A stretch of 64,000 nucleotides of DNA from an uncultured Gammaproteobacteria bacterium (GTDB lineage: Bacteria > Patescibacteriota > Patescibacteriia > UBA9570 > CAZNEH01), in contig CAZNEH010000002.1 of assembly GCA_964572175.1 (NCBI GenBank), positions 1,406 to 65,405 of the forward strand. Reading direction: 5' to 3'. Under the pieces are notes generated by a model that saw nothing but the letters and a program-made list of their open reading frames with translations, did no database searches and had not been told where the DNA came from. A program made the translations under genes and the position numbers. Shown one piece after another: positions 610 through 64,000 of the stretch (position 1 is its first letter; every line of letters begins with the position of its first letter).

Positions 610-638
610 TTGCAAAATTAGTTAATATCAGCTAAGAT
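610..638 (+). promoter_or_regulatory. sigma70-like promoter TTGCAA-N17-TAAGAT upstream of the island A gene
   Basis: TTGCAA at 610-615, 17-nt spacer, TAAGAT at 633-638. AAGGAGG SD at 683-689 is 8 nt before the GTG at 698. Confidence 0.35.
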
Positions 639-2822: not shown

Positions 2823-2851
2823 TGTTATCTTAAGAATACCCGAACAGAAAC
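2823..2851 (-). promoter_or_regulatory. lexA promoter (minus strand TTGACG-N17-TATTCT) with an embedded candidate SOS box GTTCGGTTTCTGTTCGG (GTTC-N7-GTTC)
   Basis: The reverse complement of 2823-2851 reads TTGACG TTCGGTTTCTGTTCGGG TATTCT. recA at 40394-40422 has the same architecture. Confidence 0.5.
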
Positions 2852-2898
2852 CGAACGTCAATAGCCACCTGTGGATAAAATGTTTATTAACTAATTAT

Positions 2899-3977: not shown

Positions 3978-4019
3978 AATAGTAAAACTAAAAGGCACCT
4001 TCCAACATCGGAGTCCTCC

Positions 4020-4943: not shown

Positions 4944-4950
4944 GACAAAG

Positions 4951-4988
4951 GGAGCTACCTCCTCGTGAGCTAGCTCCTGTTTTTTTTA
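4951..4988 (+). terminator. intrinsic terminator of the island B gene
   Basis: GGAGCTA...TAGCTCC stem followed by TGTTTTTTTT. Confidence 0.6.
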
Positions 4989-5204
4989 TTCTATCTTTAG
5001 ATTTTTGCATAAACGATCCACCTTCTTATTTAGCCTTTCAAACTTATCTTCAGGTATTTTTTTCTCATGTTTAATTATCTGACAAACTGGCTTTCCATAT
5101 TTTTCAATCACTAATATTATATCTTTATAATAAACTTCATTAATCAAAGACCCAATATTAGCCCTTAAATCCATTAAGCTAACTGTTTTTACTTGTTTTT
5201 TCAT
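4986..5204 (-). CDS. Phd/YefM-family antitoxin-like protein; no cognate toxin adjacent
   Basis: N-terminal KTVSLMDLRANIGSLINEV and the IIVIEKYGKPVCQII beta-strand pattern are typical of Phd/YefM. 72 aa. Confidence 0.55.
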   Translation of the reverse strand: MKKQVKTVSLMDLRANIGSLINEVYYKDIILVIEKYGKPVCQIIKHEKKIPEDKFERLNKKVDRLCKNLKIE

Positions 5205-10057: not shown

Positions 10058-10072
10058 AAAAAAATTTTTATT

Positions 10073-13000
10073 ATGGCCCAGAAAACAAAAAAGAACGCAT
10101 TTTACTTATCTAGCGCTGTTTTTATTATATTGCTCAGCGTTTTTTTATTTAATTATCCTCCTCAAGAAACAAAAGCATTAACTACTATTAGCTGTGTTAC
10201 TGATACTGCTGTGAGCTCAGCTAGTTATAACACAAGTCATGACCTAGCTTTTAGTGCCGGAGGAGGAAATAATACCTGTGTTTTAACTGGTGATTTTAGT
10301 GTTAATTCTGTTACAGTGAACCCTAATGTTATTTTAACTCATACCGCTGAAAACGCAGATGGAGTTAGTATTACCACGGTTGATTATTTTACTTTAGATG
10401 TTAATGCATCTATCAATGTAGATGAAAAAGGCTGTAACGGTGAGTCTGATGCTGGTGGTTGGGGTCCTAATGCTTCTAATGTTTGCGCTGAATATGATGC
10501 TGGTTGGGGAGATGGCTCTATAAATGGATGGAATGGTACTCAAGGAGCTGGTCATGGTGGAGCCGGAGGACTAGGAACAGACGCTGCTTATGATGATGGT
10601 GGTCTTACCTATGGGTCTCCTACTGCTCCAATTTTATTTGGTTCTTCTGGTGGTCCAGCCTTTGATGACGGTGGAACCTCTGGTGATGGCGGTGGGTTAA
10701 TTATATTAAATATTGGCGGAACTTTTACTCATGACGGGTCTATCTCAGCTAATGCTGGAAACGGTAGTGGAGCTGAGGGTCCAGATTCTAAAGCTTCTGG
10801 TGGTGGATCTGGTGGATCCATTAATATTACCGCTAACTCCATAACTGGTTCTGGAGACTTTGCTGCAGATGGTGGAAATGGTGGAAATGGTACTGATGAT
10901 GACGCCGGTGGTGGAGGTGGGGGCGTATCGCGGTTAAATATGCTGGTGGTGATTATAGTTTTGATTCTACGGATTTTAGCGTAGCTGGCGGAACTATTAC
11001 TGATGGAGCAACCGCTGGAGACAAGGGAACAGTTTATGTAGAAAATACAACCTCTAATGCTGTTAATATTTATCATGGCTTTACCTATGCTTCAGATTAT
11101 AGTGAAGCATCTTGGACTGTAGATTCTTCCGCAACTAACCAATATTGTAACTATGGTGACCCTGATGAAACTGATGAGGCCACTCCTTCAATTACTGTTA
11201 CCGGAGCTCTTACTTTAACCGGGACTTTTGATTGCTCAGATAGCAATGTTACTAGTTTTGATACCGCCGTTGGTACAAGCATGAGCTTAACCGCTCTTAC
11301 TTTTACTTTAGCGGCCGAAGATGTTTGGACTATGAACGATGCTGTTCCTGCTACTGTAACTTCTTCTTCTGCTATTAACTCTAATGTTGAATGGACAAAT
11401 TTAACCAGTCTTAGTATAGATAGCACTTCTAGTATTAATGCTAATGAAAAAGGATGTGCTAGCGAAGGTGCTTCTTATGGTTACTTCCCAGATACTGATC
11501 CTGGAAATTATAATGTTTGTATAAATGCAGAGCCTGCTGGTAATGGCGGTGGACAAGGTAGTGACGGAGGGTGGATTGGCTCCCAAGGGGCTGGTTTTGG
11601 TGGGGCTGGAGGACTAGGTTCTGACGCAGGTTATAGTAATGGTGGCGTGGTCTATGGCTCTAATACTGCGCCTGATTTATTTGGTTCTGCTGGCGGTCCA
11701 GCTTGGGCTGATGATCCTGGTTCTGGTGATGGCGGTGGATTAATTCGCTTAGATGTTGATGGAACTTTTACTCATAATGGTGCCCTTTCTGTAGATGGTG
11801 GATCTGGTGGAGCAGCTACTAATGCTTCTGGTGGTGGATCTGGTGGGTCAATTTATATTACGGCTAGTGAAATATCAAATGGTGCTGGCTCAGACGGTAC
11901 ATTTTCTGCTGATGGTGGCCCTGGTGGAGATGGTAGTGGAGACGATGGTGGTGGTGGAGGCGGAGGACGAATCTCTGTTAGCGCTGTAGACAGTTTTGAC
12001 AATCTAGGCACTTTAACTGCGGCTGGCGTAGCCACTGGCGGAACTGCCACTGGAACTGCGGCTGCTGGTTCTAACGGTACTCTTTATACTCTTTTTTACA
12101 CTGCTCCAGACCAACCAACTCTTAGTCCTTCAGACTCTGCTCGTAACATGGCCCTAACTAGCTCAGCTTATTCTTCAAATGGTGCTTCCCATACTTCTAC
12201 CGATTGGTATGTTTGTACAGATGGCGCTTGCGATGCTAACAGTCTAGTTTGGTATTCAGAAGACGATGCTTCTAACCTAGAATCAATAACTGTAAATACT
12301 ACTAACGGAACTTTTTCAGGAGACTTAGCTGGTAAAACAAAACTTGCTCCAGCAACTAATCATCAAATAAAAGTTCGCCATACTAATGCCGCTGGTGATT
12401 CTACTTGGAGTGTATTTACTGGTCAAAATACCATTGCTAACAATGTTCCTTCCACTCCTACTAACTCTTCGCCAACAGACGCTGCTACAGATCAATCTAA
12501 AACTCCAACAATTTCTGCCTCTTCATACTCAGACTCAGATTCAGATACTCATACTTACAGCACTTGGAATACTTATGAATCTTCAGACTGTTCAGGAAGT
12601 GAAATTTGGTCTTCTGGATCAGTTGCCGCTAATGAATCTACCACTATTAATGAAGCAAGTGGAGCTTTTTCAGACAGTCACTTAGGTGAGGCAGACTTAA
12701 AAGGACATACCCAATATTCTTGGCAAGTAAGATATGACGATGAATACGATGGTCAATCAAGTTATTCAGCTTGTACCACTTTTACTACTTTAAACACTAC
12801 TCCAGTCGCTAGTGCTGGCTCAGACCAAACAGTTATTGAAGGAACTGACGCTACCTTAACGGCTACTTCTACAGATGATGACTGGAATGACACACCAACT
12901 AACACTTGGATAGAGTCTTTAGACTCTTCAGATGGGTGTACTCTTTCTGGAACAACTGCCACTACCTCAAATAAAGAAACTTCTTACACTTGCCAATTCC

Positions 13001-13878
13001 AAGTTACAGCTGACGATGGATCAAGTGGAGAGGATACAGACACCATGACTTTAACTGTCACCGCAGACAATGATGCTCCTGCTCTAGGTTCCATGGAAAC
13101 AAGTGTTACTATCGATGAAGAAGATACTCTTCTTGCCACCTACACTGCCACAGACGCAGACACTGCTTCTCTAAGTTTTACTGCTTCAAGTTTACCAACA
13201 GGCTCAACTTTAACAGATAACTCTAATAATACTGCTACTTTAACTTGGACCCCAGACTCAACTCAATCAGGAACATACACTTTAACTCTTCAAGTCTCAG
13301 ACGGCACAACTGCAGTCACTCAAAATATTACCATCACTGTAAACGACACAGTCCAAGACGAAGAGGAAGAAGAACCAGTAAACACCATCGAAGACATTGG
13401 TCTAGTCTCTGGCACAGAATCAGGCCCAGGTATTGTCACTTTATACGACAACGACAATGAAGAATTATGTTCAGTTAGAGCTTGGAACGAGGGTGGGTCA
13501 GTTCCATTCGCAGTTCGTTTCCTAGACACTACTTACGTGGCAGTTGTAAAAAATAAAGTAGGCACTACTATTCACCTTTATGATCTAAATTGTAATATTA
13601 TTGAGAAAAAGAGATTATCACCTAAACTACATCCTCGTAACATTGTCACTAGAAACTTCTTAGGTAAAACTACTTCTCAAGAAATAGGTTTAACCTCACG
13701 AAGAGGAAGCACAGTATATGGTAAGATCTTCAGATATAATCCAAACAAAGACAAATGGTACTTACTAAGACAAAAAACATTTAGACCAGTTCCAACTGGA
13801 TATAACCTAAAGAAAACCAAAAAAGGAAATATTCTCATCAAGAAAAACAATAAAACTCTCCACAAGTGGGAGATATAA
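10073..13878 (+). CDS. giant Gly-rich cell-surface protein (paralog of 33699-37490), interrupted by a single-nucleotide frameshift in a G5 tract near 10919-10923; pseudogene, phase-variable gene or sequencing error
   Basis: ORF-track pieces 10073-10984 and 11281-13878 are one gene. Frame B is open from 10921, and its translation GRIAVKYAGGDYSF parallels GRAAIYYNDASGFT in the intact paralog. Total length is 3806 nt, which is 3n-1. Confidence 0.7.
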
Positions 13879-13881
13879 TAT
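13296..13881 (+). repeat. large near-identical DNA repeat (copy a) encoding the shared C-terminal module of the giant surface proteins
   Basis: More than 90% identical over about 580 nt to 36907-37493. The last 230 nt are essentially identical. Copy b is 29650-30166. Confidence 0.85.
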
Positions 13882-13922: not shown

Positions 13923-13970
13923 ATCTGCTTTTTTATGTTAGCCTTATAATATAAATAATAATCTTCTATT

Positions 13971-14011
13971 CCCCCTCTCCACGAAGGTGGAGAGGGGGCT
14001 AGGGGGTGAGG
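13971..14011 (+). repeat. GC-rich palindromic intergenic element, copy 2
   Basis: CCCCCTCTCCACGAAGGTGGAGAGGGGG + CTAGGGGGTGAGG. Confidence 0.7.
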
Positions 14012-14022
14012 AAAGAAGAAAT

Positions 14023-15249: not shown

Positions 15250-15292
15250 TAGCTACCCTCTCCACGAAGGTGGAGAGGGGCTGGGGGAGAGG
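15250..15292 (+). repeat. GC-rich palindromic intergenic element, copy 3
   Basis: Near-identical to copy 1. Confidence 0.7.
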
Positions 15293-15326
15293 CAAGAGAG
15301 GAATCTGCATAACCTGTGGATAAAAA

Positions 15327-15366
15327 AGCTCCCTCTCCACGAAGGTGGAGAGGGCGGGGGGAGAGG
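15327..15366 (+). repeat. GC-rich palindromic intergenic element, copy 4 (tandem to copy 3, separated by a CCTGTGGATAAAA motif)
   Basis: Near-identical to copy 6 at 53235-53274. Confidence 0.7.
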
Positions 15367-15438
15367 AATTCCTAACTTTAGCCATTTTTTCTTCATGTGG
15401 ACAAAAAACTTGACAATTTTTTAGCTGGGCTTGACAAA

Positions 15439-27200: not shown

Positions 27201-30163
27201 ATTCTACAGATCAACGCTTATCTTTAGCTAGTTCTACTCCAGACACTCAATTTAATATTGATCCCCAAGGAGTTAGAATATTACACTATTTAAATGTTCA
27301 AGACAGTAACAACGCCAATGCCACTGAGGCAGATTGTAACAAAGGATGTTTAAGCTCAGATAATAATACCAACTGGAGCTTTTACGATATTTCTACTTAC
27401 ACCACTTCTTCTCAGGCTTGGCATTTTACAAGCTCTAGTGATTATACTTATAACTCTTCTTATATAGACATTGCCCTGGATGCTGGGGCTACTTATTCTC
27501 GTTTAAAGGATTTAGGCGGAGCAACTTATCAAGCTGCTAGCCTACCAGGGCTTAGTCATCGCAAACCAATTACTATTACTAATTCCGGATCGTCTTTAAC
27601 TGATCATCAAATTGAACTTTCAATAACTTACGATTTAGACATGCAGGCTGATTTTGATGATCTAAGATTTACCACTTCAGACGGACAAACAGAAATAGAC
27701 TATTGGATTCAAGATTATACCGCTTCTACATCAGCTACTATCTGGGTTGAAGTTCCAACTATCGCCGCCACCCCAACTGATACTACTATTTACATGCATT
27801 ATGGAAACGCAAGTACTTCCACAACTTCAAATATTGATAATACTTTTCTATTTGGAGACGATTTCGATGATGCCTCAGTAGATACAAATAAATGGACCAC
27901 TACCGGAATCTTAGAAGAAACCGGCGGGTCATTATTAATGAATGCTACCGAAGGTGTTTGGGCTACTAATTATATTGTTGAAGACGACTCTATTACTACT
28001 TTTCAAGCTTATATTGATGTTACTGGGACAAAGTCTAATCTAGGATATGTGGAAGAATCTCATCAATTCGAGGATGATTTAGATTCTGGTGAAAAAGGAT
28101 TTGACTTTGGATTCTGGACTTCCACAAGTTTATATTTTGAAAGAGGGGGAAGTACCTATGAAGAGAGCTCAGTAACTTATGGGACTGGCTGGAATGAATA
28201 TACTGCCACTTACCAAGAAGGAACTTCAATTAAATTTGAATACCCTAGTAGTTCTTTTACTGAAGACACCGCTACCTCTGTGGTCGCAGTTTCAGATGCT
28301 CCTCATTTACAAATTTATTCTTTTGATCGAGTTGATTTTAGAGCAGACTATGTATTTGTTAGAAAATATACCTCTAATACTGTGGGCGCATCTTTGGGTT
28401 CAGAAGAAGAAGTTAGTTACGATAATGTACAAATTATTCCTGTTTCAGTTCCAGCCTACGCCAATATAATTTCTTTTACAGAAACTCTAGGAGCCGCTAA
28501 TGCTGGTAGCGTGGCCTATCAACTATCTAAGAATGGAACTAATTGGTACTATCATAATGATTCCTCTTGGACTGCGGTGTCTGTTGATTCTGTGCACAAT
28601 AATACAGCTACAGAAGTAGATAATTTAATCACAAACTTCACCACAGATGTAGGTACAGGAGATTTATATTTTAAAGCTTTCTTAATCTCAAGTGGATCAC
28701 AAAAAGTTGAACTAGATGCCATAACGTTAACTTATAACGCTGTTCCTCAGGAGCCAACTAGTCTATCTCCTTCAACCACTGACATAGCTTTATCAGGTAC
28801 AGCTTCGGCTACTATTAGCGACATGATGGGATCTCACCAGTCCACTTCTTGGAAAATGCAAACTGGTTCAGATTGTTCTGTAGACTCAGGTGTAGCCTTT
28901 TCCTCCTTGGTAGATTCTACTAACAAAACATCTATTACTTATTCAGGTTTAGACTTTAGCACTTCTTATTACTTATGTGTTGCCAATCATAACGAAGGCG
29001 GCCAAGGAGATTGGCAGTCACAGTCATTTACTACTGTAGCTAATCAAGCTCCAACTGCTAGCGCTGGTACAGATATTACTATCTCAGAAGATGATGAATC
29101 TACGGCCCTAGATGGAACTAGCTCTTCAGACCCAGAAAGCCAGGCCTTAACTTATACTTGGTTAGAAACAGTTGACGCCTCAGATGGATGTTCTTTATCT
29201 AGTCCTAGTAGCTCTACTCCAACTGTTACTGTTTTAAATAAAGACACCAGTTTTAATTGTACCTTTTCTTTAGAAGTAGAAGACACTCAAGGTGCTACTT
29301 CTACGGATACAGTTAATCTTTATATCACTGCCGACAACGACGCTCCAGCTTTTGGATCAATTGCCTCTACTCAAAATATAGATGAAGAATCAGTTTTACT
29401 TATTTCCTTTACCTCTTCAGATCCAGATACTTCCTCTTTGACTCTTTCAGCCTCTAATCTTCCAACAGGTTCCACTTTTACAGACAACCTAAATAACACA
29501 GGAACATTTAATTGGTCTCCAGATGGAACGCAGTCTGGAATTTATACTGTTACCTTCCAATTAACTGATGGTGAAAATACTACCACTCAAACCGTAACCA
29601 TCACAGTTAATGATACTGTTCAAGAAGAGGGGGAGGGTGACGAAGAAGAGGAGGAAGAACCAGTTAACACTATCGAAGACATTGGTCTAGTCTCAGGTAC
29701 AGACTCAGGCCCAGGCATTGTCACTCTTTATGGTAATGACAACGAAGAACTATGTTCAGTCCAAGCTTGGAATGAAGGTGGAGCAGTTCCATTTAGAGTC
29801 CGCTTCTTAGACACTAACTATATTGCTGTAGTAAAAAATAAAACAGGTACCACTATCCATCTTTACGATCTAAATTGTAATATTATTGAGAAAAAAAGAT
29901 TATCCCCTAAACTACATCCTCGTAACATTGTCACTAGAAACTTCTTAGGTAAAACTACTTCTCAAGAAATAGGTTTAACCTCACGAAGAGGAAGCACAGT
30001 ATATGGTAAGATCTTCAGATATAATCCAAACAAAGACAAGTGGTACTTACTAAGACAAAAAACATTTAGACCAGTTCCAACTGGATACAACCTAAAGAAA
30101 ACTAAAAAGGGAAATATTCTTCTTAAGAAAAACAACAAAACTCTCCACAAGTGGGAAATCTAG
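24224..30163 (+). CDS. giant secreted surface protein (1979 aa): beta-helix-like tandem repeats, DUF2341/LamG-like region, cadherin-like (ADNDAP) domains, shared C-terminal module
   Basis: Signal peptide. Three tandem repeats of about 230 aa ([10 protein letters not shown]...GYRETFN). C-terminal 170 aa nearly identical to the other two giant proteins. Confidence 0.8.
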
Positions 30164-31283: not shown

Positions 31284-31317
31284 AAAAAAAGAGGGAACTC
31301 GGGTAAGTGATTCCCTC
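31284..31317 (-). terminator. intrinsic terminator of the island C gene (minus strand)
   Basis: Minus strand reads AGAGGGAA-loop-TTCCCTC then TTTTTTT. The loop is the 14-nt inverted-repeat sequence. Confidence 0.6.
31297..31310. repeat. left arm of a perfect 14-bp inverted repeat (ACTCGGGTAAGTGA) flanking island C
   Basis: Exact reverse complement of 31858-31871. Confidence 0.8.
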
Positions 31318-31838: not shown

Positions 31839-31857
31839 GTTTCCCCCTTCGGGGGAG

Positions 31858-31871
31858 TCACTTACCCGAGT
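31858..31871. repeat. right arm of the 14-bp inverted repeat (TCACTTACCCGAGT) flanking island C
   Basis: Lies immediately 5' of the island C gene, beside the TCCCCCTTCGGGGGAG hairpin. Confidence 0.8.
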
Positions 31872-33686: not shown

Positions 33687-33698
33687 ATACATATTATT

Positions 33699-36600
33699 AT
33701 GGCTCAAAAAACAAAAAAGAAGGCATTTTACTTATCTAGCGCGGTTATTATTGCAATAATCAGCATTTTTTTATTTAATTACCCCCCTCAATCAGTAAAT
33801 GCAGCCGATGAATCAGTTTCTTGTAATTCTACCACCCTAGATCAAACCGCTTTAGATGCTTTAGCTGGAGATGCTGTTACTTTTACTGACGGTGGAGACG
33901 GTATTTGTATTTTTACTGGAACTTTAGGCGCTGCTTCTGTTACTGTTAACGCTGATGTTACTTTAACTCACAATGCTGAGGATGAAGATGGATTAAGTAT
34001 TACCACTGCAGATTATTTTCTCTTAAATGGAAACATAGACGTTGAGGGAAAAGGTTGTTCTGGCGGAGAAAATGGAAGCACTGATGGTCATGGTCCAGAC
34101 ACATCTACCGGGGTTTGTGCTCAAACTACTAGTGGTTATGGTAAGAGTGGTGATAGTGGAGGGGCACATGCTGGCTCTGGTGGCGAAGGACATTATGGTG
34201 GGGCAGTTCAATTAACAACTTATGGAGACTCCAACAATTCCTCTTTACTCGGATCTGGAGGTGGAGCTACCAGTAATCCAAATACTTATGGTGGAAATGG
34301 CGGCGGATTAATTGCTTTAACAATAGGAGGAACTTTAACTGTAAACGGTAGTATAAATGCTGATGGGCAAGATGGTTATGGAACAGCGAATCGTGGTGGC
34401 GGAGGATCTGGGGGTTCAATTAAAGTGACAACTACTACCTTAGCTGGGTCTGGGGCAATTTCTGTTGATGGAGGTAATGGTAATACAAATTACTCTGGTG
34501 GCGGTGGTGCAGGCAGGGCTGCAATTTATTATAATGATGCTAGCGGCTTTACTTTAACTAATATTACTGCTGCTAAAGGTTTAAAATCTTCTGGAACTAC
34601 TGGTAATGCCGAAGATGGAACCGTTGGTTCAATTTTTATCTTAGATCAAGATTCTGACATCTTAACTACTACTACTGGCTTAGAGCTGCAAGACGGGGAT
34701 GATTACACTAAATCCGAAATTACTTTTTTAGATGGTGCTCAAATCTGGTGTGATAGCTTTGCCACTCTTAATATCGGAGCCACTGGTACCTTAGCAATGG
34801 ATGATAATACCTGGACTTGTGACAGTGTTGATACTATAAATATGTCTGCTGGCACTTGGACCACATCTGGAACCAGTACCATGAGCTTTAATAAAGCAGG
34901 TAGTCAGGTAGATTGGGATATTTCTAATAATCTTACTTTAAATAACCTAACTTATAATGGAGGATATGCCGGAATCACTAGTGCTAGTGGCGGGCTTTTA
35001 ACTTTAGATAACCCCATTGATATTAATTTAGTAAATACAGATATTATTTCTAGTGTAGACTTGGACGCTACTAATCTAACTCTAGATGCTAGCTCATCTG
35101 TTAGCGCCAAAGGAACAGGTTGTGCCGGTGGAATAACTAGCAGTACCAATGGTTATGGACCCAATACCTCCACAGGAATTTGTACTCAAGGAGAAAGTGG
35201 TTATGGTAAAGGAAATGATGGAGGAGGGGCGCATGCTGGTGCTGGCGGTCGAGGAAATTATGGTGACGCTACCCAGTTAACAACCTATGGCAGTGCTGAT
35301 AATCCATCTTTATTTGGTTCAGGTGGAGGATCTAATGCTAATCCAAATAATTATGGCGGATATGGAGGAGGAAAAGTTTTTATTGATGTTACTGATACTT
35401 TGTCTGTAGCTGGAGATATAAATGCTGACGGACAAGATGGTTATGGTTCTGGTAGTCGTAGTGGCGGAGGCTCTGGAGGGGCTTTAAAAATTACTACTGG
35501 AACTTTATCTGGAGCTGGAACAATTTCTGTTGATGGTGGCAATGGTAATACAGATTACTCTGGTGGAGCCGGTGGCGGCCGAGCTTATGTTGGCTATGCT
35601 GTTAATGATTCATTTAATCTTTCTAATATTACTTCCACCAAAGGTTTAAAATCTTCTGGAACTCCTGGTAGTGCAGTTGATGGAGGCGATGGCTCTGTTT
35701 CTACCCTTGCTTACACCGCTCCAACACAACCAACTCTTAGTCCTTCAGACACATCTCGTAACATGGCCCTAACCAGCTCAGCTTATTCTTCAAATGGTGC
35801 TTCTCATACTTCTACTGATTGGTATGTTTGTACTGATGCTGCTTGTGATGCTAGTAGCCTAGTCTGGTACTCTGAAGATGATGCTTCTAACTTAGAAGCA
35901 GTAACTGTAAATACAACTAATGGAACTTTTGCCGGCACCTTGGCTGGTGAAACAAAGCTTGCTCCAGCAACTAGTCATCAAATAAAAGTTCGCCATACCA
36001 ACGCTGCTGGTGATTCTACTTGGAGTAGCTTTACCGGTCAAAGCACTCAAGCTAATAATGTTCCAAGTGCTCCTACTAATGTAGCTCCTGCAGATGCTAC
36101 CACTGACCAATCTAAAACTCCAACCCTAACTTCTTCTATATACTCAGATTCAGACTCAGATGATCATGGAGATTCTACTTGGGAAATATATGAATCTTCA
36201 GATTGTACTGGAGATAAAGCCTGGAGATCATTAGATGACTCTTCTAATTTAGAATCAATTGATACTTCTGCCGCTGGAACCTTTCTTGATGACTATGCTA
36301 CTCCAGGAGAATTAAAAGGGCACACTGAATATTCTTGGAAAGCTAGGCACGACGATGAATATTCTGGTCAATCTTCAGACTCATCTTGTACAAAATTTAC
36401 TACCTTAAACACCACTCCAACTGCCAATGCAGGCGCAGATCAAACCGCTACTGAAGGAGACGACGTAACCCTAAGCGGGTCATCTACAGATTTAGACTGG
36501 AACGACACAGTTACTGAAACTTGGATTGAATCACTTGATTCTTCAGATGCTTGTACTCTTTCTGGAACAACGGCCACTACTTCAGATAAAGAAACATCTT

Positions 36601-37490
36601 ACACTTGCCAATTCCAAGTTACAGCTGACGACGGTCAAGGTACTACAGATACCGACACTATGACTTTAACTGTCACTGCCGATAACGACGCTCCAACTAT
36701 GGGCACTCTGGCAGACGTTGTTGTAGATGAAGAACAAGCTCTTCTTATTGCCATTTCTTCTGCCGACACAGACTCATCTTCTTTAACTCTTTCAGCATCA
36801 ACCTTACCAACTGGCGCAGTCTTTACCGATAACGAAGACACCACTGGAAACATGCAATGGACTCCAACCTCAGATCAATCAGGAGCCTATGCTGTTACCT
36901 TCAGTGTTTCAGACGGCACAACTGCAGTCACTCAAAATATTACCATCACTGTAAACGACACAGTCCAAGACGAAGAGGAAGAAGAACCAGTTAACACTAT
37001 TGAAGACATTGGCTTAGTTTCTGGAACAGAATCAGGTCCTGGTATTGTCACTCTTTACGACAATGACAACGTAGAGCTATGCTCAGTTAGAGCTTGGAAC
37101 GAAGGTGGGTCAGTTCCATTCGCAGTTCGCTTCTTAGACACTACTTATGTGGCAGTTGTAAAAAATAAAGTAGGCACCACTATTCACCTTTACGATCTAA
37201 ATTGTAATATTATCGAGAAAAAAAGATTATCCCCCAAACTACATCCTCGTAACATTGTCACTAGAAACTTCTTAGGTAAAACTACTTCTCAAGAAATAGG
37301 TTTAACCTCACGAAGAGGAAGCACAGTATATGGTAAGATCTTCAGATATAATCCAAACAAAGACAAATGGTACTTACTAAGACAAAAAACATTTAGACCA
37401 GTTCCAACTGGATATAACCTAAAGAAAACCAAAAAAGGAAATATTCTCATCAAGAAAAACAATAAAACTCTCCACAAGTGGGAGATATAG
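33699..37490 (+). CDS. giant Gly-rich cell-surface protein (1263 aa), intact paralog of 10073-13878
   Basis: MAQKTKKK signal anchor, Gly-rich repeats, cadherin-like domains, shared C-terminal module. The ORF-track start at 33681 is TTG inside the leader palindrome. Confidence 0.8.
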   Translation: MAQKTKKKAFYLSSAVIIAIISIFLFNYPPQSVNAADESVSCNSTTLDQTALDALAGDAVTFTDGGDGICIFTGTLGAASVTVNADVTLTHNAEDEDGLSITTADYFLLNGNIDVEGKGCSGGENGSTDGHGPDTSTGVCAQTTSGYGKSGDSGGAHAGSGGEGHYGGAVQLTTYGDSNNSSLLGSGGGATSNPNTYGGNGGGLIALTIGGTLTVNGSINADGQDGYGTANRGGGGSGGSIKVTTTTLAGSGAISVDGGNGNTNYSGGGGAGRAAIYYNDASGFTLTNITAAKGLKSSGTTGNAEDGTVGSIFILDQDSDILTTTTGLELQDGDDYTKSEITFLDGAQIWCDSFATLNIGATGTLAMDDNTWTCDSVDTINMSAGTWTTSGTSTMSFNKAGSQVDWDISNNLTLNNLTYNGGYAGITSASGGLLTLDNPIDINLVNTDIISSVDLDATNLTLDASSSVSAKGTGCAGGITSSTNGYGPNTSTGICTQGESGYGKGNDGGGAHAGAGGRGNYGDATQLTTYGSADNPSLFGSGGGSNANPNNYGGYGGGKVFIDVTDTLSVAGDINADGQDGYGSGSRSGGGSGGALKITTGTLSGAGTISVDGGNGNTDYSGGAGGGRAYVGYAVNDSFNLSNITSTKGLKSSGTPGSAVDGGDGSVSTLAYTAPTQPTLSPSDTSRNMALTSSAYSSNGASHTSTDWYVCTDAACDASSLVWYSEDDASNLEAVTVNTTNGTFAGTLAGETKLAPATSHQIKVRHTNAAGDSTWSSFTGQSTQANNVPSAPTNVAPADATTDQSKTPTLTSSIYSDSDSDDHGDSTWEIYESSDCTGDKAWRSLDDSSNLESIDTSAAGTFLDDYATPGELKGHTEYSWKARHDDEYSGQSSDSSCTKFTTLNTTPTANAGADQTATEGDDVTLSGSSTDLDWNDTVTETWIESLDSSDACTLSGTTATTSDKETSYTCQFQVTADDGQGTTDTDTMTLTVTADNDAPTMGTLADVVVDEEQALLIAISSADTDSSSLTLSASTLPTGAVFTDNEDTTGNMQWTPTSDQSGAYAVTFSVSDGTTAVTQNITITVNDTVQDEEEEEPVNTIEDIGLVSGTESGPGIVTLYDNDNVELCSVRAWNEGGSVPFAVRFLDTTYVAVVKNKVGTTIHLYDLNCNIIEKKRLSPKLHPRNIVTRNFLGKTTSQEIGLTSRRGSTVYGKIFRYNPNKDKWYLLRQKTFRPVPTGYNLKKTKKGNILIKKNNKTLHKWEI

Positions 37491-37500: not shown

Positions 37501-37539
37501 CCCCCTCTCCAGACGTGGAGAGGGGGTTTGGGGGTGAGG
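37501..37539 (+). repeat. GC-rich palindromic intergenic element, copy 5
   Basis: CCCCCTCTCCAGACGTGGAGAGGGGG + TTTGGGGGTGAGG. Followed by TGCTATAAT at 37548-37556. Confidence 0.7.
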
Positions 37540-37586
37540 CAAAAATATGCTATAATATTATTGTAAAAATTTACTATTTTTTATTT

Positions 37587-40393: not shown

Positions 40394-40422
40394 TTGACGT
40401 TCGGCTTTTGTTCGGTTATGAT
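40394..40422 (+). promoter_or_regulatory. recA promoter TTGACG-N17-TATGAT with an embedded candidate SOS box GTTCGGCTTTTGTTCGG (GTTC-N7-GTTC)
   Basis: 15 of 17 positions identical to the lexA box, in the same position between -35 and -10. Confidence 0.55.
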
Positions 40423-44365: not shown

Positions 44366-44394
44366 TTGACATATTAACCTGGTCTTAGTAAGAT
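44366..44394 (+). promoter_or_regulatory. near-consensus promoter TTGACA-N17-TAAGAT for the island D gene
   Basis: Back-to-back with the groES promoter. Same TAAGAT -10 as island A. Confidence 0.5.
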
Positions 44395-53234: not shown

Positions 53235-53274
53235 AGCTCCCTCTCCACGAAGGTGGAGAGGGCGGGGGGAGAGG
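53235..53274 (+). repeat. GC-rich palindromic intergenic element, copy 6
   Basis: CCCTCTCCACGAAGGTGGAGAGGG + CGGGGGGAGAGG. Confidence 0.7.
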
Positions 53275-53284
53275 AAAGAGGAGA

Positions 53285-58727: not shown

Positions 58728-58742
58728 TTGACGTGTTATAAT
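58728..58742 (+). promoter_or_regulatory. extended -10 promoter TGTTATAAT upstream of the island E gene
   Basis: Same TGnTATAAT type as the host promoters. Confidence 0.35.
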
Positions 58743-58786
58743 AAAAAGGGTAAGGTAATTCATCGGTCAAATCACAGCATTGAGAG

Positions 58787-59107
58787 GTGAAATTGCAGAA
58801 ACCATTCCATCAAGGTCAACAACCGCCCACTCGTCAAGCCTTTGATCGCGATCGTCTCCTGGAGGTCCGTCGATATCCAGGACGCATCATCGTAGACGTT
58901 GCCTTCCTCACTGACATCGAATCACTCGGCGAGGTCAGGGTCACGTTCAATGGCTGTCAGTGCCAAGCCTGGCTCGAACAGTCCAGAGACTGGAAAGGAC
59001 AAAGCACTCTCTCTGTCCATCTTCTGGTCATCTCCACTCCCGGAGAACACAACATCACCATCGAGCCGGAGAACTACCACGGCATCGAGGTCATCACGCG
59101 GGGATAG
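58787..59107 (+). CDS. hypothetical protein (106 aa); GC-rich island E. Start is GTG at 58787 or TTG at 58793
   Basis: About 58% GC. GAGAGG SD overlaps the GTG, so TTG has better spacing. No recognisable domain. Confidence 0.4.
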   Translation: MKLQKPFHQGQQPPTRQAFDRDRLLEVRRYPGRIIVDVAFLTDIESLGEVRVTFNGCQCQAWLEQSRDWKGQSTLSVHLLVISTPGEHNITIEPENYHGIEVITRG

Positions 59108-59156
59108 TAGCTACGTGCCGCTTCCTCGCCCCCTTTTACCGCAATTCCATTTCAAT

Positions 59157-60234: not shown

Positions 60235-62280
60235 TTATTCCACCAAGTTTTGAGGCAACTCGTCTATAAATCTAGATGGAGCATTCACTTGAGTCTGTCC
60301 ATAAATAGTTCTTTCACTCGCAAAGCTAATATATAATTTCTTTTTAGCTCTAGTCATGGCTACATAACAAAGTCTTCTTTCTTCTTCCATTTCTTTTGGA
60401 TCAAACAAGCATCGACTATGAGGAAATAGTCCTTCTTCCATGCCTATTAAAAAGACATTTGAAAATTCTAAACCTTTAGCAGCATGAATGGTCATCATTT
60501 GAACAGCTGGTAAATCTTCTTTAACCTCATCTTGATCATGAATTAAAGCAATCTCTTCTAAGAATAATTCTAAAGCTTGAGCGCCCTTATAATTACTAAA
60601 TTTTAAACAAGCAGTTTTTAATTCCTGGATATTTTCCCATCTTCTTTCTCCTTCTTCAGTCCCGTCCTGAATAAAATTTTTATACCCTGATTCTTCAGCT
60701 ACTATGTCAACAATTTCTTCTGCTTTTTTTTCTTTAATATCTTCCGCTAGATTTTTCATTGTTGTTTGAAAAGTTAAAAAAGCTAACTTTCCTTTAGGTT
60801 TCATATCTCCTAAGTCTGCTTCTTCTATTTCTAAGAAATTCTTTTTATTTTGGATTCCAGCTTGTTCAATTTTTTGCCAGGTCACCGGACCAATTCCTTT
60901 TGGCGGAGCATTTACAATTCTTTCCAAGCCTACCCAGTCATCCGGATTAACTAGCATCTTTAAATAAGAAATCATATCTTTAATTTCTCGTCTTTCATAA
61001 AAGCGAATCCCGCCAATTAACTTGTAGGGGACACCATACTTTAAAAATGCTTCTTCAATGGCTCTAGACTGAGCATTAGTTCGATACAAGACTACATACT
61101 TAGACAAATCTACCCTTTTAATTTTTTCGCGAATTGCATCAGTAACTTTATTTTCCCGCTTTCTTTTATTAAAGGTAGAACTTTTCATTATTTTATCAAT
61201 AATGCTTTCTTCGTCTTCATATTCATAAACAAGCTCATCAGGGTCTTTCTCTGGTTCTTTTTCTTTTAAGCCTAAAATACTATCAACAATGAATTGTCCC
61301 TCCCCAGCCTCATCACGTACCTCTTCTATAGTGATTTTTTCTCCAGCGTCATTATCTGTCCATAATTTCTTATCTTTTTGCCCTTTATTTTGGCCAATAA
61401 TAGTTTGGGCTGCATCTAAAATAGTTTGAGTTGAGCGATAGTTTTGTTCTAGCATTACTACCTTAGTATTTGGATAATCATCTTCAAAATTTAAAATATT
61501 TTGATAATTAGCCCCTCGAAAGCCATAAATTGCTTGATAATCATCGCCAACTACGCATAAATTAGGCTTCTCTCCACCTAAAAGTCTGATTAGTTGGTAT
61601 TGAGCTTCGTTAGTATCTTGATACTCATCAATTAAAATATATTGCCACAATTTTTGATATTTTTGTAAAATCTTTTCTTCTTGCTTAAACAAAACTACGG
61701 TTTTCATGATTAAATCATCAAAGTCCATGGCTTGGTTACGCTCTAAATTCTTTTGGTAGTCCTTATAAATCTTTTCTACTTGTTGAGTAAAGAAATCTGA
61801 GCCAGCATAACTATCTGAATCTAATAATTCGTTCTTAGCATTAGAAATATGAACTTGAACTGCTTTAGGATTAATTTTTTTAGGATCCTGGTTCAACTCT
61901 TTCATTACTTTTTTTATCAAATTCAAAGAATCATTAGAATCATAAATCACAAAACTGTTTTTCATTCCTAAGGGCTCTATTTCTCTACGAAGTAGACGAA
62001 CACAAATAGAGTGAAAAGTTCCCATAGCTGGCCAGTGCTCAACTTTTCCAGACATTAATTCTTTTACTCGGCTTTGCATTTCCTTAGACGCCTTATTAGT
62101 AAAGGTCACCGCCAAGATATTCCAAGGTTTAATTTTTTCTTCAGCAATAAGATAGGCGATCCGATGGGTTAAAGCCCTGGTCTTACCACTGCCTGCCCCA
62201 GCTAAAACTAAAACCGGACCCTTGGTTGTGGTCACGGCCTCTTGTTGTGGCTTATTTAATCCTGTTAGAAGTTTTGACAT
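60235..62280 (-). CDS. UvrD/PcrA/Rep family ATP-dependent DNA helicase
   Basis: AGAGSGKT Walker A, DEYQDTN motif II, helicase motifs III-VI. Confidence 0.9.
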   Translation of the reverse strand: MSKLLTGLNKPQQEAVTTTKGPVLVLAGAGSGKTRALTHRIAYLIAEEKIKPWNILAVTFTNKASKEMQSRVKELMSGKVEHWPAMGTFHSICVRLLRREIEPLGMKNSFVIYDSNDSLNLIKKVMKELNQDPKKINPKAVQVHISNAKNELLDSDSYAGSDFFTQQVEKIYKDYQKNLERNQAMDFDDLIMKTVVLFKQEEKILQKYQKLWQYILIDEYQDTNEAQYQLIRLLGGEKPNLCVVGDDYQAIYGFRGANYQNILNFEDDYPNTKVVMLEQNYRSTQTILDAAQTIIGQNKGQKDKKLWTDNDAGEKITIEEVRDEAGEGQFIVDSILGLKEKEPEKDPDELVYEYEDEESIIDKIMKSSTFNKRKRENKVTDAIREKIKRVDLSKYVVLYRTNAQSRAIEEAFLKYGVPYKLIGGIRFYERREIKDMISYLKMLVNPDDWVGLERIVNAPPKGIGPVTWQKIEQAGIQNKKNFLEIEEADLGDMKPKGKLAFLTFQTTMKNLAEDIKEKKAEEIVDIVAEESGYKNFIQDGTEEGERRWENIQELKTACLKFSNYKGAQALELFLEEIALIHDQDEVKEDLPAVQMMTIHAAKGLEFSNVFLIGMEEGLFPHSRCLFDPKEMEEERRLCYVAMTRAKKKLYISFASERTIYGQTQVNAPSRFIDELPQNLVE

Positions 62281-62295
62281 AAAAAAATTATAACA

Positions 62296-62360
62296 TAAAA
62301 AAAATCACAGGTCCACGGATCACTCCACAGAGCCTGTGCTTCGTGACTTCTAGTAGTCAC
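62296..62360 (-). terminator. terminator region of the island F cluster (two hairpins then a U-run on the minus strand)
   Basis: Minus strand reads GTGACT-ACTAGA-AGTCAC and CACAGG...CCTGTG, followed by ATTTTTTTT. Confidence 0.5.
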
Positions 62361-62376
62361 GGACGTTGTCCTCTTC

Positions 62377-62826
62377 CTACTGCTCTTCAGCCGCATCTGG
62401 ATAGAGCATGGCGTCGACTTCTTCCTGAGAGGGGTCACCGAGCTCTTCTTCCCATCGAAGCAGGGTGAGGTGCTGTTGCAGATCTCGCTGCTCCTCAGGC
62501 GAGAGCTCAGGCAGGATGTTCTCTCCTTCCTCTAGGATGCTCTCTCGACACACGGGGCAGAGTTGGCAGTGCAGGAGCACGGCCATGGGGACCAGAGTTC
62601 CTTCCGGAGGAACTTCTAGGAATTCTTCCATCATTGCTCCCAGCATCTCCTCCTCGACCAGGTCGCAGCTCGCAGGGTTGCCCAGGTTCATGATCTGCAT
62701 GGCCCTGGCCGCTCCTTCTTCAGCCGCTTCTGCCTCTTCGATCAGGGCGACCAGCTTGTCTTCTTCCATCTTGCCGTCGAAGGCAGTGCGCAGGAACTCA
62801 GACAGGGACTGACGGTTGTCAGACAT
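62377..62826 (-). CDS. acidic ACP-like protein Z (149 aa) with an H-x3-C-x2-C motif; GC-rich island F
   Basis: NLGNPASCDLVEEEMLGAMMEEFLEVP parallels ACP helix II ([22 protein letters not shown]). AGGAGG SD 5 nt before the ATG at 62826. The ORF-track GTG at 62844 lies inside the leader. Confidence 0.4.
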   Translation of the reverse strand: MSDNRQSLSEFLRTAFDGKMEEDKLVALIEEAEAAEEGAARAMQIMNLGNPASCDLVEEEMLGAMMEEFLEVPPEGTLVPMAVLLHCQLCPVCRESILEEGENILPELSPEEQRDLQQHLTLLRWEEELGDPSQEEVDAMLYPDAAEEQ

Positions 62827-62929
62827 GGGTACCTCCTGTACCACTTGAGATTCATTTTTAGCCTATCATGGCCAAAAAAAAGAGGCAAGGCCGCGAAAGT
62901 CCACTAGGGTCTCTCGCAAAACCTTGCTC
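62827..62929 (-). promoter_or_regulatory. leader/promoter repeat R1 (about 100 nt) upstream of gene Z; near-identical to R2
   Basis: Shares about 90% identity with 63457-63560, including the SD and nested hairpins (GCAAGG...CCTTGC). Confidence 0.6.
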
Positions 62930-62949
62930 GCTGGCGACCTCGTAGGTCG

Positions 62950-63456
62950 CTACTCCTTGTTGGGAGCCAGGGCTACGACCCAGGCGATGAACTCTCCGAC
63001 CGTAGTGACTTGTCTCAGGGCGTTCGCCGCTGCCTCGTTGATCTCGAAGCCCAGCTCGGTGCGGCAGGCTACGCCTGCTTTGGCCAGCCCCTTAGGACAG
63101 ACATCCAGATCATCTCCTTCTCCCTCTCCTGTCAGGAGTCGATCGTCGTCTGTCAGGGCAGCGGAGTTGACGTCCCAGACCCGGCACATGATCCCCTTGA
63201 TGTGGTCTTTCAGGATCAGGGGCATGATCCAGTCGAGCCACTCTCCAGGTGTGGCCGGGTCATCCTCTCGGCCCTCATCCAGCTCGAGCTCCAGTTCGCT
63301 CTCGACGTCGTAGGAGATGTCGTCGAAGTCTCCTTCGAAGTCATCGAGCAGGGAATCGAGATTCGTGTCCTCAGTGAACTCGTCGCTGTCGTCGATCAGG
63401 CTGTGGGCGATTGCGTGCTGACGCAGGATCTCCAGACACTCTTCGCGGCTCTTCAT
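62950..63456 (-). CDS. acidic ACP-like protein Y (168 aa): ACP helices I-II (DTNLDSL) and III-IV (ELGFEINEAAANALRQVTTVGEFIAWV) split by an insertion of about 90 aa
   Basis: DSL Ser motif. The C-terminus matches the ACP helix III-IV consensus. GGAGG SD 6 nt before the ATG. Confidence 0.4.
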   Translation of the reverse strand: MKSREECLEILRQHAIAHSLIDDSDEFTEDTNLDSLLDDFEGDFDDISYDVESELELELDEGREDDPATPGEWLDWIMPLILKDHIKGIMCRVWDVNSAALTDDDRLLTGEGEGDDLDVCPKGLAKAGVACRTELGFEINEAAANALRQVTTVGEFIAWVVALAPNKE

Positions 63457-63560
63457 GGGGTACCTCCGTACCGTTTGGAATTCATTTTTACCCTATCATG
63501 GCCAAAAAAAAGAGGCAAGGCCGCGAAAGTCCACTTGGGGTCTCTCGCAAAACCTTGCTC
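63457..63560 (-). promoter_or_regulatory. leader/promoter repeat R2 upstream of gene Y
   Basis: Duplicate of R1. Confidence 0.6.
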
Positions 63561-63578
63561 AGGGAGGGAGGTTGCTCC

Positions 63579-63989
63579 TTAGGGGAGTCGTTTCCCAGTA
63601 GTTCTTATGGGTCCGTTGCCGCAGCGACAGCTTTTTCCTTGTTCGGCTCTCTCGCCGCAGCTGCACTTCCAGGTTCTGGGAGGTAGGGGAGTGCCGAAGC
63701 TCATCTCTTTGGCGGGACGTCCGGTGAACTTGTTCTTGACCCACTGGACCAGGGCGCCGACGGTCTCCACGCCGACCAGGTCGAACTGGCCGATCTGGAT
63801 CAGGAGCTCCTTCTCCAGCGCCGCGATCAGGTCCACAGTCCGGATGCTGTCCAGTCCTAGATCGATGAACTCAGTCTCCGGACTGAGTGCGTCCCGATCT
63901 ACCTGGAAGACCTTGGACACGGCCAGGCAGACCTTGTTTTCCAGCGTCTGGTCAAGGTTGTCCGCACACGTCGTTCGAGTTGGTTGCAT
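63579..63989 (-). CDS. acyl carrier protein-like protein X with a C-terminal CxC-x9-CxC tail
   Basis: FIDLGLDSIRTVDLIAALEKEL is the canonical PP-binding DSL/DSI motif in a four-helix context. GGAG SD before the ATG at 63989. Upstream region lies beyond the window. Confidence 0.55.
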   Translation of the reverse strand: MQPTRTTCADNLDQTLENKVCLAVSKVFQVDRDALSPETEFIDLGLDSIRTVDLIAALEKELLIQIGQFDLVGVETVGALVQWVKNKFTGRPAKEMSFGTPLPPRTWKCSCGERAEQGKSCRCGNGPIRTTGKRLP

Positions 63990-64000
63990 GATGTCTCCGT

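Follow-up and report, generated by a model that had tools for sequence, protein, structure and literature searches.

Genes of the array

We analysed the GC-rich end of a 64,000-nucleotide stretch of DNA (the window) from an uncultured, ultra-small bacterium of the candidate phyla radiation (CPR; Patescibacteria), where small genes, among them genes for proteins like acyl carrier proteins (ACPs), lie beside uvrD. The results showed that positions 62290-64000 have a GC content of ~58-60% in a chromosome of 36% GC, and the values per kilobase are 0.52-0.58 at 62001-64000 versus ~0.32-0.40 across most of the window. The mean of the whole window is ~36-38%; the switch from AT-rich to GC-rich DNA falls at ~62300, and the DNA stays GC-rich to the window end. 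Three open reading frames (ORFs) running in the same direction on the minus strand, X, Y and Z, occupy this end. The contig L001, described below, continues the array beyond the window edge. The features are as follows, with SD for Shine-Dalgarno sequence, PP for phosphopantetheine and GC3 for GC content at third codon positions.

62297-62338, minus strand: predicted intrinsic terminator at the end of the array (hairpin CACAGGCTCTGTGGAGTGATCCGTGGACCTGTG at 62306-62338, T8 at 62297-62304), from folding and scanning
62377-62826, minus strand: gene Z, 149 aa, acidic; AGGAGG SD 5 nt before the ATG; H86-x3-C90-x2-C93
62827-62949, minus strand: junction module R1 between Y and Z; predicted Y terminator with hairpin at 62882-62929 and T8 at 62874-62881
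62950-63456, minus strand: gene Y, 168 aa, 25% D+E; Y_N module at ~1-80 and putative degenerate ACP-like domain Y_C at ~84-161
63457-63578, minus strand: junction module R2 between X and Y; predicted X terminator with hairpin at 63512-63560 and T8 at 63504-63511
63579-63989, minus strand: gene X, 136 aa; predicted AcpP-type PP-binding domain at ~16-89 (DLGLDS) and C-terminal TWKCSCG-x8-CRCG tail
63990-64000, minus strand: 3' end (SD region) of R0, the remainder of which lies beyond the window edge on L001
L001, upstream of X: ACP2, 79 aa, PF00550 at 49.4 bits, motif LAMDSS
L001, 4 nt before ACP2: ACP1, 80 aa, PF00550 at 59.7 bits, motif LGADSLD, GC3 0.98
L001 1482-1844: ZnR120, 120 aa, GC-rich, ending in TWVCSCG-x10-CWNC, a putative Zn ribbon like the X tail

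Codon-position GC in X, Y and Z was 0.59-0.73 (GC1), 0.34-0.45 (GC2) and 0.67-0.75 (GC3), and the difference between GC3 and GC2 supports their reading frames. The GC3 of the array genes overall was 0.67-0.98, compared with 0.26-0.34 in the host genes uvrD, guaA and guaB. The ratio K/(K+R) was 0.25-0.50 in X, Y and Z and 0.2-0.6 in all array genes versus 0.70-0.78 in host genes, indicating that arginine is preferred over lysine in the array. These profiles agree with the original prediction, made from the window alone, of three co-oriented minus-strand GC-rich genes in an AT-rich genome. The array ORFs inside the window are all intact and have good SDs, and the other ORFs of the window encode ordinary chromosome functions. 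The nearest species-level relatives of the host are Kerfeldbacteria-like CPR bacteria, with 51-52% UvrD identity.

A second, separately generated assembly, Logan SRR8146440 (L001, 3776 bp), contains a gene for the identical protein X. With this contig, the gene order is ychF / ZnR120 / IS200-like Y1 transposase / ACP1-ACP2 / X / Y / Z / uvrD. Read upstream from X, L001 holds R0, ACP2, ACP1, the IS200-like Y1_Tnp gene, ZnR120 and the AT-rich host gene ychF. The cluster had been described as running off the window edge, with more genes possibly upstream, and L001 adds ACP1, ACP2 and the Zn-ribbon gene ZnR120 past the window end. The transposase gene (L001 1995-2471) is AT-rich, lies on the opposite strand and has its own distinct end hairpins. 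We found no synthase, acyl-ACP synthetase, phosphopantetheinyl transferase (PPTase) or integrase among the scanned ORFs of the 64-kb window or in L001, and for PPTase and partner enzymes this covers ~68 kb of genome; the absence of an adjacent synthase was thus also seen in the longer sequence.

The abrupt compositional switches could point to a chimera, by assembly or binning, of AT-rich CPR DNA and the GC-rich DNA of a different organism. The AT/GC/AT/GC junctions recur in L001, and among the contigs of a related strain L084 (GCA_046766155.1) and L083 (JGI 3300072921) span the array-uvrD junction and the junction between insertion sequence (IS) and array, respectively, while L085 (GCA_046766335.1) covers the array interior. 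Given these contigs, the junctions are not assembly artefacts. The switches also coincide exactly with promoter and terminator boundaries, and host-like promoters are predicted before the GC-rich ORFs. We therefore consider a chimera vanishingly improbable.

X scored 46.9 bits against PF00550 (gathering cut-off 20.8; E=3e-12) and carries DLGLDSIRTVDL, the serine motif DLGLDSI and a C-x-C-x9-C-x-C tail, matching the canonical PP-binding motif and CxC-x9-CxC tail described previously. Residues 16-89 aligned end to end with solved ACPs from the PDB (E=1e-8). The NCBIfam ACP models gave E values of 1e-9 to 2e-11, with every equivalog score far below its cut-off, and the sole PHROGs match was phrog_5934 'acyl carrier protein' (E=1e-5). 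A word-indexed search returned no relatives of X at E<=1e-3. The tail of X matched ZnR120 at E=0.006-0.04 and resembles stand-alone Zn-ribbon cassette proteins. X is thus predicted to be a true PP-binding ACP with a Zn-ribbon-like tail. ZnR120 matched no Pfam family; it matched ZnRb84 of the relative at E=1e-4. ACP1 and ACP2 are 51-52% identical to each other, and ACP1 and X 29-37% (E ~2e-6). ACP1 resembles AcpP-type ACPs and is ~50-56% identical to ACPs on viral contigs. The D-S motif within a recognisable PP-binding domain is kept only in ACP1, ACP2 and X, so only these could still be phosphopantetheinylated.

Several GC-rich cassette proteins that are otherwise unrelated share a W-x-C-x-C motif, seen as TWKCSCG, TWVCSCG, WWRCDCN, QWRCQCA and NGCQCQAW. 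Its sites are the X tail (63579-63680), L001 1482-1844, L085 85-339, an island gene of L087 and window positions 58790-59110. The spacing in the Zn-ribbon cassettes, C-x-C-x3-(N)-x6-C-x2-C, recalls RanBP2-type zinc fingers.

Y had no Pfam match at E<=1 and no NCBIfam, PHROG or PADLOC family, and a word-indexed search gave only the self match. A full HMMER search against 1.8e9 representatives found one relative, P0008, which is 49% identical over residues 3-85 of Y. We built an ACP test profile, a hidden Markov model (HMM), in which three textbook ACPs were combined with ACP1, ACP2 and the N-terminal portion of X, and compared each protein with 3000 composition-preserving shuffles. Y_C scored 11.3 bits, aligned over the whole profile, and none of the 3000 shuffles reached this score. 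It has DLDVCP where ACPs have DLGxDS, and is without the carrier serine. Y_N scored 7.4 bits, which 11/3000 shuffles reached; it has NLDSLL, and its homologue YNb, a stand-alone gene in the relative, has DLTAIL. YNb gave no ACP signal (201/3000 shuffles), and Y_N is therefore taken as a separate module. With hhalign, P was ~0.002 for each half of Y, and Y_C matched Zb139 of the relative at E=0.008. Y had been proposed to be an ACP split by an acidic insertion of ~90 aa. This proposal gives way to a different architecture, since Y_N stands alone in the relative and the C-terminal ACP-like domain is complete, if degenerate. From these weak sequence signals, Y would be a conserved N-terminal module fused to a serine-less, degenerate ACP-like domain.

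Z likewise had no Pfam match at E<=1 and no NCBIfam, PHROG or PADLOC family, and a word-indexed search against 5.8e9 protein clusters returned only Z itself. Its score against the ACP HMM was -1.3 bits, and 2489/3000 shuffles equalled or exceeded it. Over 97 aa, Z shares 39% identity with Zb139 (139 aa; E=2e-7), a protein of the related strain. The N-terminus of Zb139 scored 14.1 bits (0/3000 shuffles), and ACP1 matched Zb139 at E=6e-4. At the serine site, Z has NPASCD and Zb139 has GADQLE, so there is no D-S motif in the Z family. Z had been credited with a segment like ACP helix II; a direct ACP signal is missing, and the link runs through the intermediate homologue Zb139. Z therefore appears to be ACP-related only by way of Zb139, its fold being suggested by weak signals.

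Z had also been credited with a motif like that of zinc-binding anti-sigma (ZAS) proteins. H86-x3-C90-x2-C93 is indeed present and is shared with ZAS anti-sigma factors, but it is replaced by IVGDVITWTL in Zb139, the only homologue. Unlike in ZAS factors, the motif lies mid-protein and not in an N-terminal domain, and there is no adjacent sigma gene. We rejected a ZAS anti-sigma identity for Z on the missing Pfam anti-sigma match, the loss of the motif in Zb139 and the neighbours, Y and uvrD.

Junction modules and the related strain

R1 (62827-62929) and R2 (63457-63560) are identical at 96 of 105 positions (91.4%), in agreement with the duplicated element of ~100 nt earlier put at ~90%, whereas the adjoining 100 nt of coding DNA are 50-56% identical. 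Their 42-nt core occurs exactly twice (chance expectation 0), and R0, before X, is a third, more diverged copy. R1, R2, R0 and the end terminator each have a GC-rich hairpin followed by T7-8, located directly 3' of the preceding gene's stop codon, with minimum free energies of -28 to -46 kcal/mol for the whole elements. R1 contains a promoter-like element, TTGCCT-17-TAGGCT, followed by TAAAAAT and an AGGAGG SD; R2 contains TTGCCT-17-TAGGGT, followed by TAAAAAT and a GGAGG SD. TTGCCT sits in the 3' arm of the hairpin, and TAGGGT/TAGGCT lies 17 nt on, past the T-run. The 3' arm and T-run of each hairpin thus overlap the promoter-like -35, spacer and -10 of the next cassette. Every cassette consists of a GC-rich ORF with a strong SD and a long GC-rich hairpin with T7-9 at its end. 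The anatomy of an intrinsic terminator, a hairpin and a T-run 3' of the stop codon, is predicted for the array elements, for module A (below) and for the islet genes that we folded.

The cluster has its own predicted terminator downstream of Z, as originally proposed. It overlaps a promoter-like site of uvrD (TGGACC-17-TATAAT), and in the related strain the identical sequence (hairpin, T8 and TATAAT box) comes after the final cassette, immediately ahead of uvrD (L084 1860-1917). The related strain has R-type copies 3' of ACP1b and Zb139. A second type, module A, has the same design (GCGGGAGTCGACACCGACTCTCGCCAGGCCTTGAC-T8-...-TAAGAT) and is common to ZnR120 (L001) and to YNb and ZnRb84 upstream of ACP1b.

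Fold z-scores were -3.2 to -5.6 for R1, the R copy of the related strain (strain B) and module A, -2.0 for R2 and -1.6 for R0. The inner stems of R0, R1/R2 and the relative's copy differ in sequence, and each still pairs. In an RNAalifold analysis of four R copies, indels spoiled the alignment and no double-sided changes were counted, so support for the hairpins comes from the individual folds. The suggestion to align R1 and R2 and fold them for covariation thus yielded the alignment and the individual hairpins, and no covariation count. Rfam 15 gave no match at gathering score in the whole window and none at E<=1 in 62200-64000, and we rejected a leader of a known RNA family (riboswitch, T-box, attenuator). 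The structure and SD of the proposed leaders were found. As regulatory 5' leader RNAs of a known family they did not hold up; the repeats are mostly the terminator of the upstream gene plus a promoter-like element. We infer that the R repeats are fused terminator-promoter-RBS (ribosome-binding site) junctions, which would make each cassette its own transcription unit. A search with the leader pattern found no match in genome species representatives or viral contigs, and the single metagenome match (L082) was dismissed as a chance match in unrelated DNA.

Promoter-like sites precede GC-rich cassettes at window positions 610-638, 44366-44394, 58728-58756 and 63490-63518 and at L001 1423-1450, 2590-2617 and 3232-3260. 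Their -10 boxes are TAAGAT, TAAGGT and TAGGGT; the listed host promoter-like sites mostly have TATAAT, TATGAT or TAAAAT. Four of the ten TA[AG]G[AG]T matches in the window precede GC-rich DNA, which makes up ~10% of it. Although TA[AG]G[AG]T precedes many cassettes, the window as a whole is not enriched in it, and we did not adopt it as the signal of a cassette regulon; it is an unproven lead.

We pieced together the ychF-uvrD interval of the relative from contigs found via P0008 and by cluster look-ups of neighbouring proteins. Its host DNA is 80-93% identical to the window, and the flanks of the array are collinear and ~85-90% identical. The array reads IS / YNb / module A / ACP1b / R / Zb139 / R / b113, followed by the end terminator and uvrD. 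In a second variant, the gene before ACP1b is ZnRb84 in place of YNb, and ACP1b itself is identical. The two variants match from just past the upstream stop codon onward, inside module A, and therefore cassettes appear to have been exchanged at junction modules. The same module types join different cassettes here and in the relative, and the number, order and domain combinations of cassettes differ; the relative's contigs contain no counterpart of X or ACP2. A look for the same cluster in related genomes had been suggested; the slot and junction modules are shared with the relative, and the cassette set is different. The term cassette, used from the start, is apt: conserved junction modules separate the genes, and order and content are shuffled between strains.

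We compared nonsynonymous (dN) and synonymous (dS) divergence between the two strains. For lexA, groES and an O-antigen-ligase-like gene, dS was 0.7-1.5 and dN/dS 0.06-0.09. The cassette pairs gave the following values.

ACP1 and ACP1b: 69% amino acid identity, dN/dS 0.86
Y_N and YNb: 52% amino acid identity (54% in a pairwise search of Y versus YNb), dN/dS 0.64
Z and Zb139: about 44% amino acid identity, dN/dS 0.28

The cassettes thus range from 0.28 to 0.86 in dN/dS, with dN 5-10 times the host values, which, between two strains, is compatible with diversifying selection as well as with partial decay. The GC3 values are graded: ACP1 0.98, ACP1b 0.92, YNb 0.87, Y 0.75, X 0.73, ACP2 0.68, Z 0.67, Zb139 0.64 and b113 0.53. 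This looks like amelioration toward the host value. One population of the relative carries a frameshifted YNb allele (L084 2-418 versus L083 138-593), from either cassette decay or an assembly indel error.

Interpretation of the array

The best-supported reading is that of a horizontally acquired, moron-like and rapidly diversifying cassette array and not of a biosynthetic carrier system. We think it probable, though far from settled, that a strain-variable array of self-contained, ACP-derived cassettes lies between ychF and uvrD, that it was seeded horizontally and recombined at its junction modules, and that most of its products, Y and Z among them, are likely non-carriers. In this view, GC-rich DNA would have supplied the founding AcpP-type ACP gene, together with the Zn-ribbon and Y_N modules, by horizontal transfer. 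Growth may then have proceeded by tandem duplication, recombination at the conserved junction modules and gene fusion, with X as a putative fusion of ACP and Zn ribbon and Y as one of Y_N and an ACP-like domain. The proteins would have diverged fast under weak constraint or diversifying selection, while their GC content slowly decayed toward the host value. The cassettes are probably expressed as independent short transcripts. Y and Z would most likely be acidic binding proteins derived from the ACP fold that serve as mimics or adaptors toward the partner proteins of ACPs, or toward other targets, and not as acyl carriers. Capture of a module from a high-GC donor, one of the two readings first suggested, is supported by the GC3 of 0.67-0.98 and the arginine-over-lysine usage relative to the host, and by the differences between strains both at the locus and in the GC-rich islets described below.

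Several results weigh against this reading. AlphaFold2 models made without an alignment had a pLDDT (predicted local distance difference test) of 43 for Y and 61 for Z, too low to interpret. The relative's contigs were assigned to one organism by shared flanks and shared assemblies rather than by a closed genome. Informative homologues of X, Y and Z did not come up in the word-indexed search of 5.8e9 clusters or, for Y, in the HMMER search of 1.8e9 representatives, and these searches pointed to no donor lineage for the array genes. Promoters were assigned by consensus resemblance, and TA[AG]G[AG]T occurs 10 times in the window against 9.4 expected, which is no enrichment. The dN/dS values near 1 and the frameshifted YNb are as compatible with partial decay as with diversifying selection. 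The GC3 of ACP1 and ACP1b is 0.92-0.98, and their dS of 0.24 is below the host dS of 0.7, for which simple vertical descent with amelioration is insufficient. This pair points to selection on GC or to a lateral exchange that postdates the separation of the strains.

Part of the same evidence could be read as decaying foreign DNA, in which GC-rich fragments from high-GC neighbours entered permissive intergenic sites and are drifting neutrally toward pseudogenes. The dN/dS of 0.3-0.9, the grading of GC3 from 0.98 to 0.53 that amelioration predicts, the frameshifted YNb allele, the orphan proteins and the differing presence of islets between strains would all fit. Against this, the window ORFs are intact with good SDs, every cassette has kept a strong terminator and a promoter-like element, and the junction modules are 91% conserved, and conserved across strains, while the coding DNA is scrambled. 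The dN/dS of 0.28 between Z and Zb139 indicates constraint, and the lack of a close donor homologue for any gene argues against raw recent uptake; on balance we regard neutral decay as rather unlikely. A working multi-carrier system, with holo-ACPs shuttling acyl or peptidyl intermediates for a distant synthase or activating scavenged host fatty acids in a CPR cell devoid of fatty-acid synthesis, is quite unlikely in our view. It can draw on the PF00550 scores of ACP1, ACP2 and X above the gathering threshold with D-S kept, on the resemblance of ACP1 to AcpP-type ACPs (~50-56% identity to ACPs of viral contigs), and on a report of acpP transfer into Patescibacteria (PMC12455944). No synthase, acyl-ACP synthetase or PPTase was found in the 64-kb window or L001, though; the serine is lost in Y_C and the Z family, the ACP1-ACP1b dN/dS of 0.86 is unlike that of a constrained carrier, array content varies by strain, and X scores far below all NCBIfam ACP equivalog cut-offs. 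The carrier-protein system of the original prediction is therefore disfavoured, with D-S confined to ACP1, ACP2 and X, an ACP1 dN/dS of ~0.86 and no partner enzymes in the available DNA.

The arrangement also recalls an integron-like or other site-specific cassette array with R1 and R2 as attC-like recombination sites, since conserved imperfect palindromes of ~50 nt separate unrelated ORFs, gene order differs between strains and an IS200-like Y1 transposase gene lies inside the array. Yet the scanned window ORFs and L001 include no tyrosine-recombinase integrase, no R''/R' GTTRRRY cores are visible, and the Y1 transposase gene is AT-rich with its own distinct end hairpins. Each repeat hairpin runs into T7-9 and shares sequence with a -35/-10-like pair, a terminator-promoter logic, and the cassettes are not promoterless. 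The missing integrase and the terminator-promoter nature of the repeats lead us to exclude an integron, with a very slim chance left to this explanation.

Other GC-rich islets, known systems and significance

At least five further GC-rich (55-63%) single-gene islets with a GC3 of ~0.73 lie in the window between AT-rich housekeeping genes; their neighbours include lexA, a radical-SAM gene, guaB/guaA and groES.

640-1800: islet 1, MTAP/PNP-like protein, 341 aa, with a C-terminal extension
4000-4990: islet 2, membrane/coiled-coil protein, 307 aa
31290-31870: islet 3, Cys-rich protein, 173 aa
44400-45250: islet 4, orphan, 258-266 aa
58790-59110: islet 6, orphan, ~104 aa

AT-rich sigma-70-like promoters are predicted upstream of islets 1, 3, 4 and 6, and islets 1-4, the four that were folded, end in a GC-rich hairpin and a T-run. 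Islet 4 is absent in the relative, where groES abuts its neighbour across 137 AT-rich bp. The slot of islet 1 holds an unrelated GC-rich gene in the relative, and nucleotide identity drops from ~85% to ~50% exactly at the terminator T-run. Islets 1 and 4 have no relatives on viral contigs. The cassettes X, Y and Z gave no blastn or tblastn match in a phage collection and no blastn match in a plasmid collection. PADLOC returned no match for X, Y, Z or the islet proteins, and on this result we rejected membership in a defence system.

Islet 3 is bracketed by a 19-nt inverted repeat (95% complementary) at 31297-31315, in the 5' untranslated region, and 31853-31871, in the terminator loop; it could serve pairing of the mRNA ends or be a relic of mobilisation. 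Terminal inverted repeats were discarded as a general islet feature, as only islet 3 has them. Elsewhere in the window, GC-rich palindromic intergenic repeats (CCCTCTCCACGAAGGTGGAGAGGG then GGGGGAGAGG) occur in at least six copies (2902-2943, 13969-14017, 15252-15300, 15327-15375, 37501-37545 and 53235-53283) and look like repetitive extragenic palindromic (REP)-type or terminator elements. An IS200/RAYT-like Y1 transposase gene is located on L001, just outside the window. The promoters of lexA (2833-2861, minus strand) and recA (40394-40422, plus strand) have in common TTGACGTTCGG(T/C)TT(C/T)TGTTCGG, which overlaps the -35 and spacer and is likely a LexA (SOS) operator; uvrA and uvrD are also in the window. 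Large paralogous repeat-rich genes (865-1979 aa) lie at 10070-13880 versus 33690-37490 and at 29280-29940. Their blocks are 63-87% identical across 16-24 kb, with internal repeats of ~1 kb, and they probably encode surface proteins.

Three other CPR contigs fetched through UvrD have a median GC of 0.35-0.39 and GC-rich segments that exceed it by more than 17 points and match no Rfam family (L012 1-3450, L015 400-4450 and L020 10150-11450). Large acidic proteins that are homologous to each other are encoded on L012 and L015. Islands of foreign composition may therefore be a common feature of CPR genomes.

A further-reaching idea, which we rate as a long shot, is that the array is a fast-evolving effector battery of an episymbiotic CPR bacterium. 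ACP genes taken from GC-rich hosts would have been turned into serine-less mimics that dock on the host's ACP-partner enzymes and tap or jam host lipid metabolism. The modules would let cassettes swap, duplicate and fuse, and the islets would belong with them to one exchangeable genome-wide class.

We found no description of such an array in the literature, and compared it with known systems. X, ACP1 and ACP2 are like AcpP-type ACPs (PF00550) in scoring above threshold and in having D-S-(L/I) at the start of helix II, and Y_C and the N-terminus of the Z family have weak but non-random ACP-like sequence. Unlike AcpP-type ACP genes, the array genes are not beside fab or pls, form five to six tandem paralogues and reach a dN/dS of 0.86, and the array shows serine loss (Y_C, Z family), a fused Zn-ribbon tail, Y_N and a C-terminal domain in Z. 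Integron arrays also have unrelated small ORFs split by conserved palindromes and strain-variable content; here, however, the array is flanked by ychF and uvrD, with neither an integrase nor attI found and an IS200-like Y1 transposase gene as the only mobile gene, the elements are terminator plus promoter and not attC, and the cassettes carry their own signals. Phage morons, known from lambdoid phages, are autonomous promoter-gene-terminator units of deviant base composition between conserved genes. The GC-rich genes are like them in having their own promoter-like element, a strong predicted terminator and a composition far from that of their neighbours, in lying between conserved genes and in a presence that depends on the strain. 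They differ in lying on a CPR chromosome among lexA, recA, groES, guaAB and uvrD and not in a prophage, and in forming a tandem array with conserved junction modules. In Patescibacteria, acpP is listed among the genes transferred from other prokaryotes (PMC12455944). These acquired genes share with the array a foreign composition in a streamlined CPR genome; here, by contrast, an ACP is expanded into a diversifying array of paralogues with standardised modules, and the islets are scattered single genes and not one large island. The locus has features both of an expansion of ACP paralogues and of islets, or morons, of foreign composition.

CPR bacteria are unable to synthesise lipids themselves and rely on host cells, through proteins that are, to our knowledge, almost uncharacterised. 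A strain-variable, fast-diverging, ACP-derived array amid core genes, its cassettes being predicted independent expression units, is a concrete candidate for the lipid interface between CPR bacteria and their hosts. The locus shows a streamlined genome taking up foreign genes as single-gene units from promoter to terminator, with their foreign composition kept. Even if its function proves trivial, it would provide an example of a conserved housekeeping protein, AcpP, that escaped constraint and was reshaped as it was duplicated, fused to other modules and deprived of its active-site serine, and an example of intergenic terminator-promoter modules that are better conserved than the genes they join.

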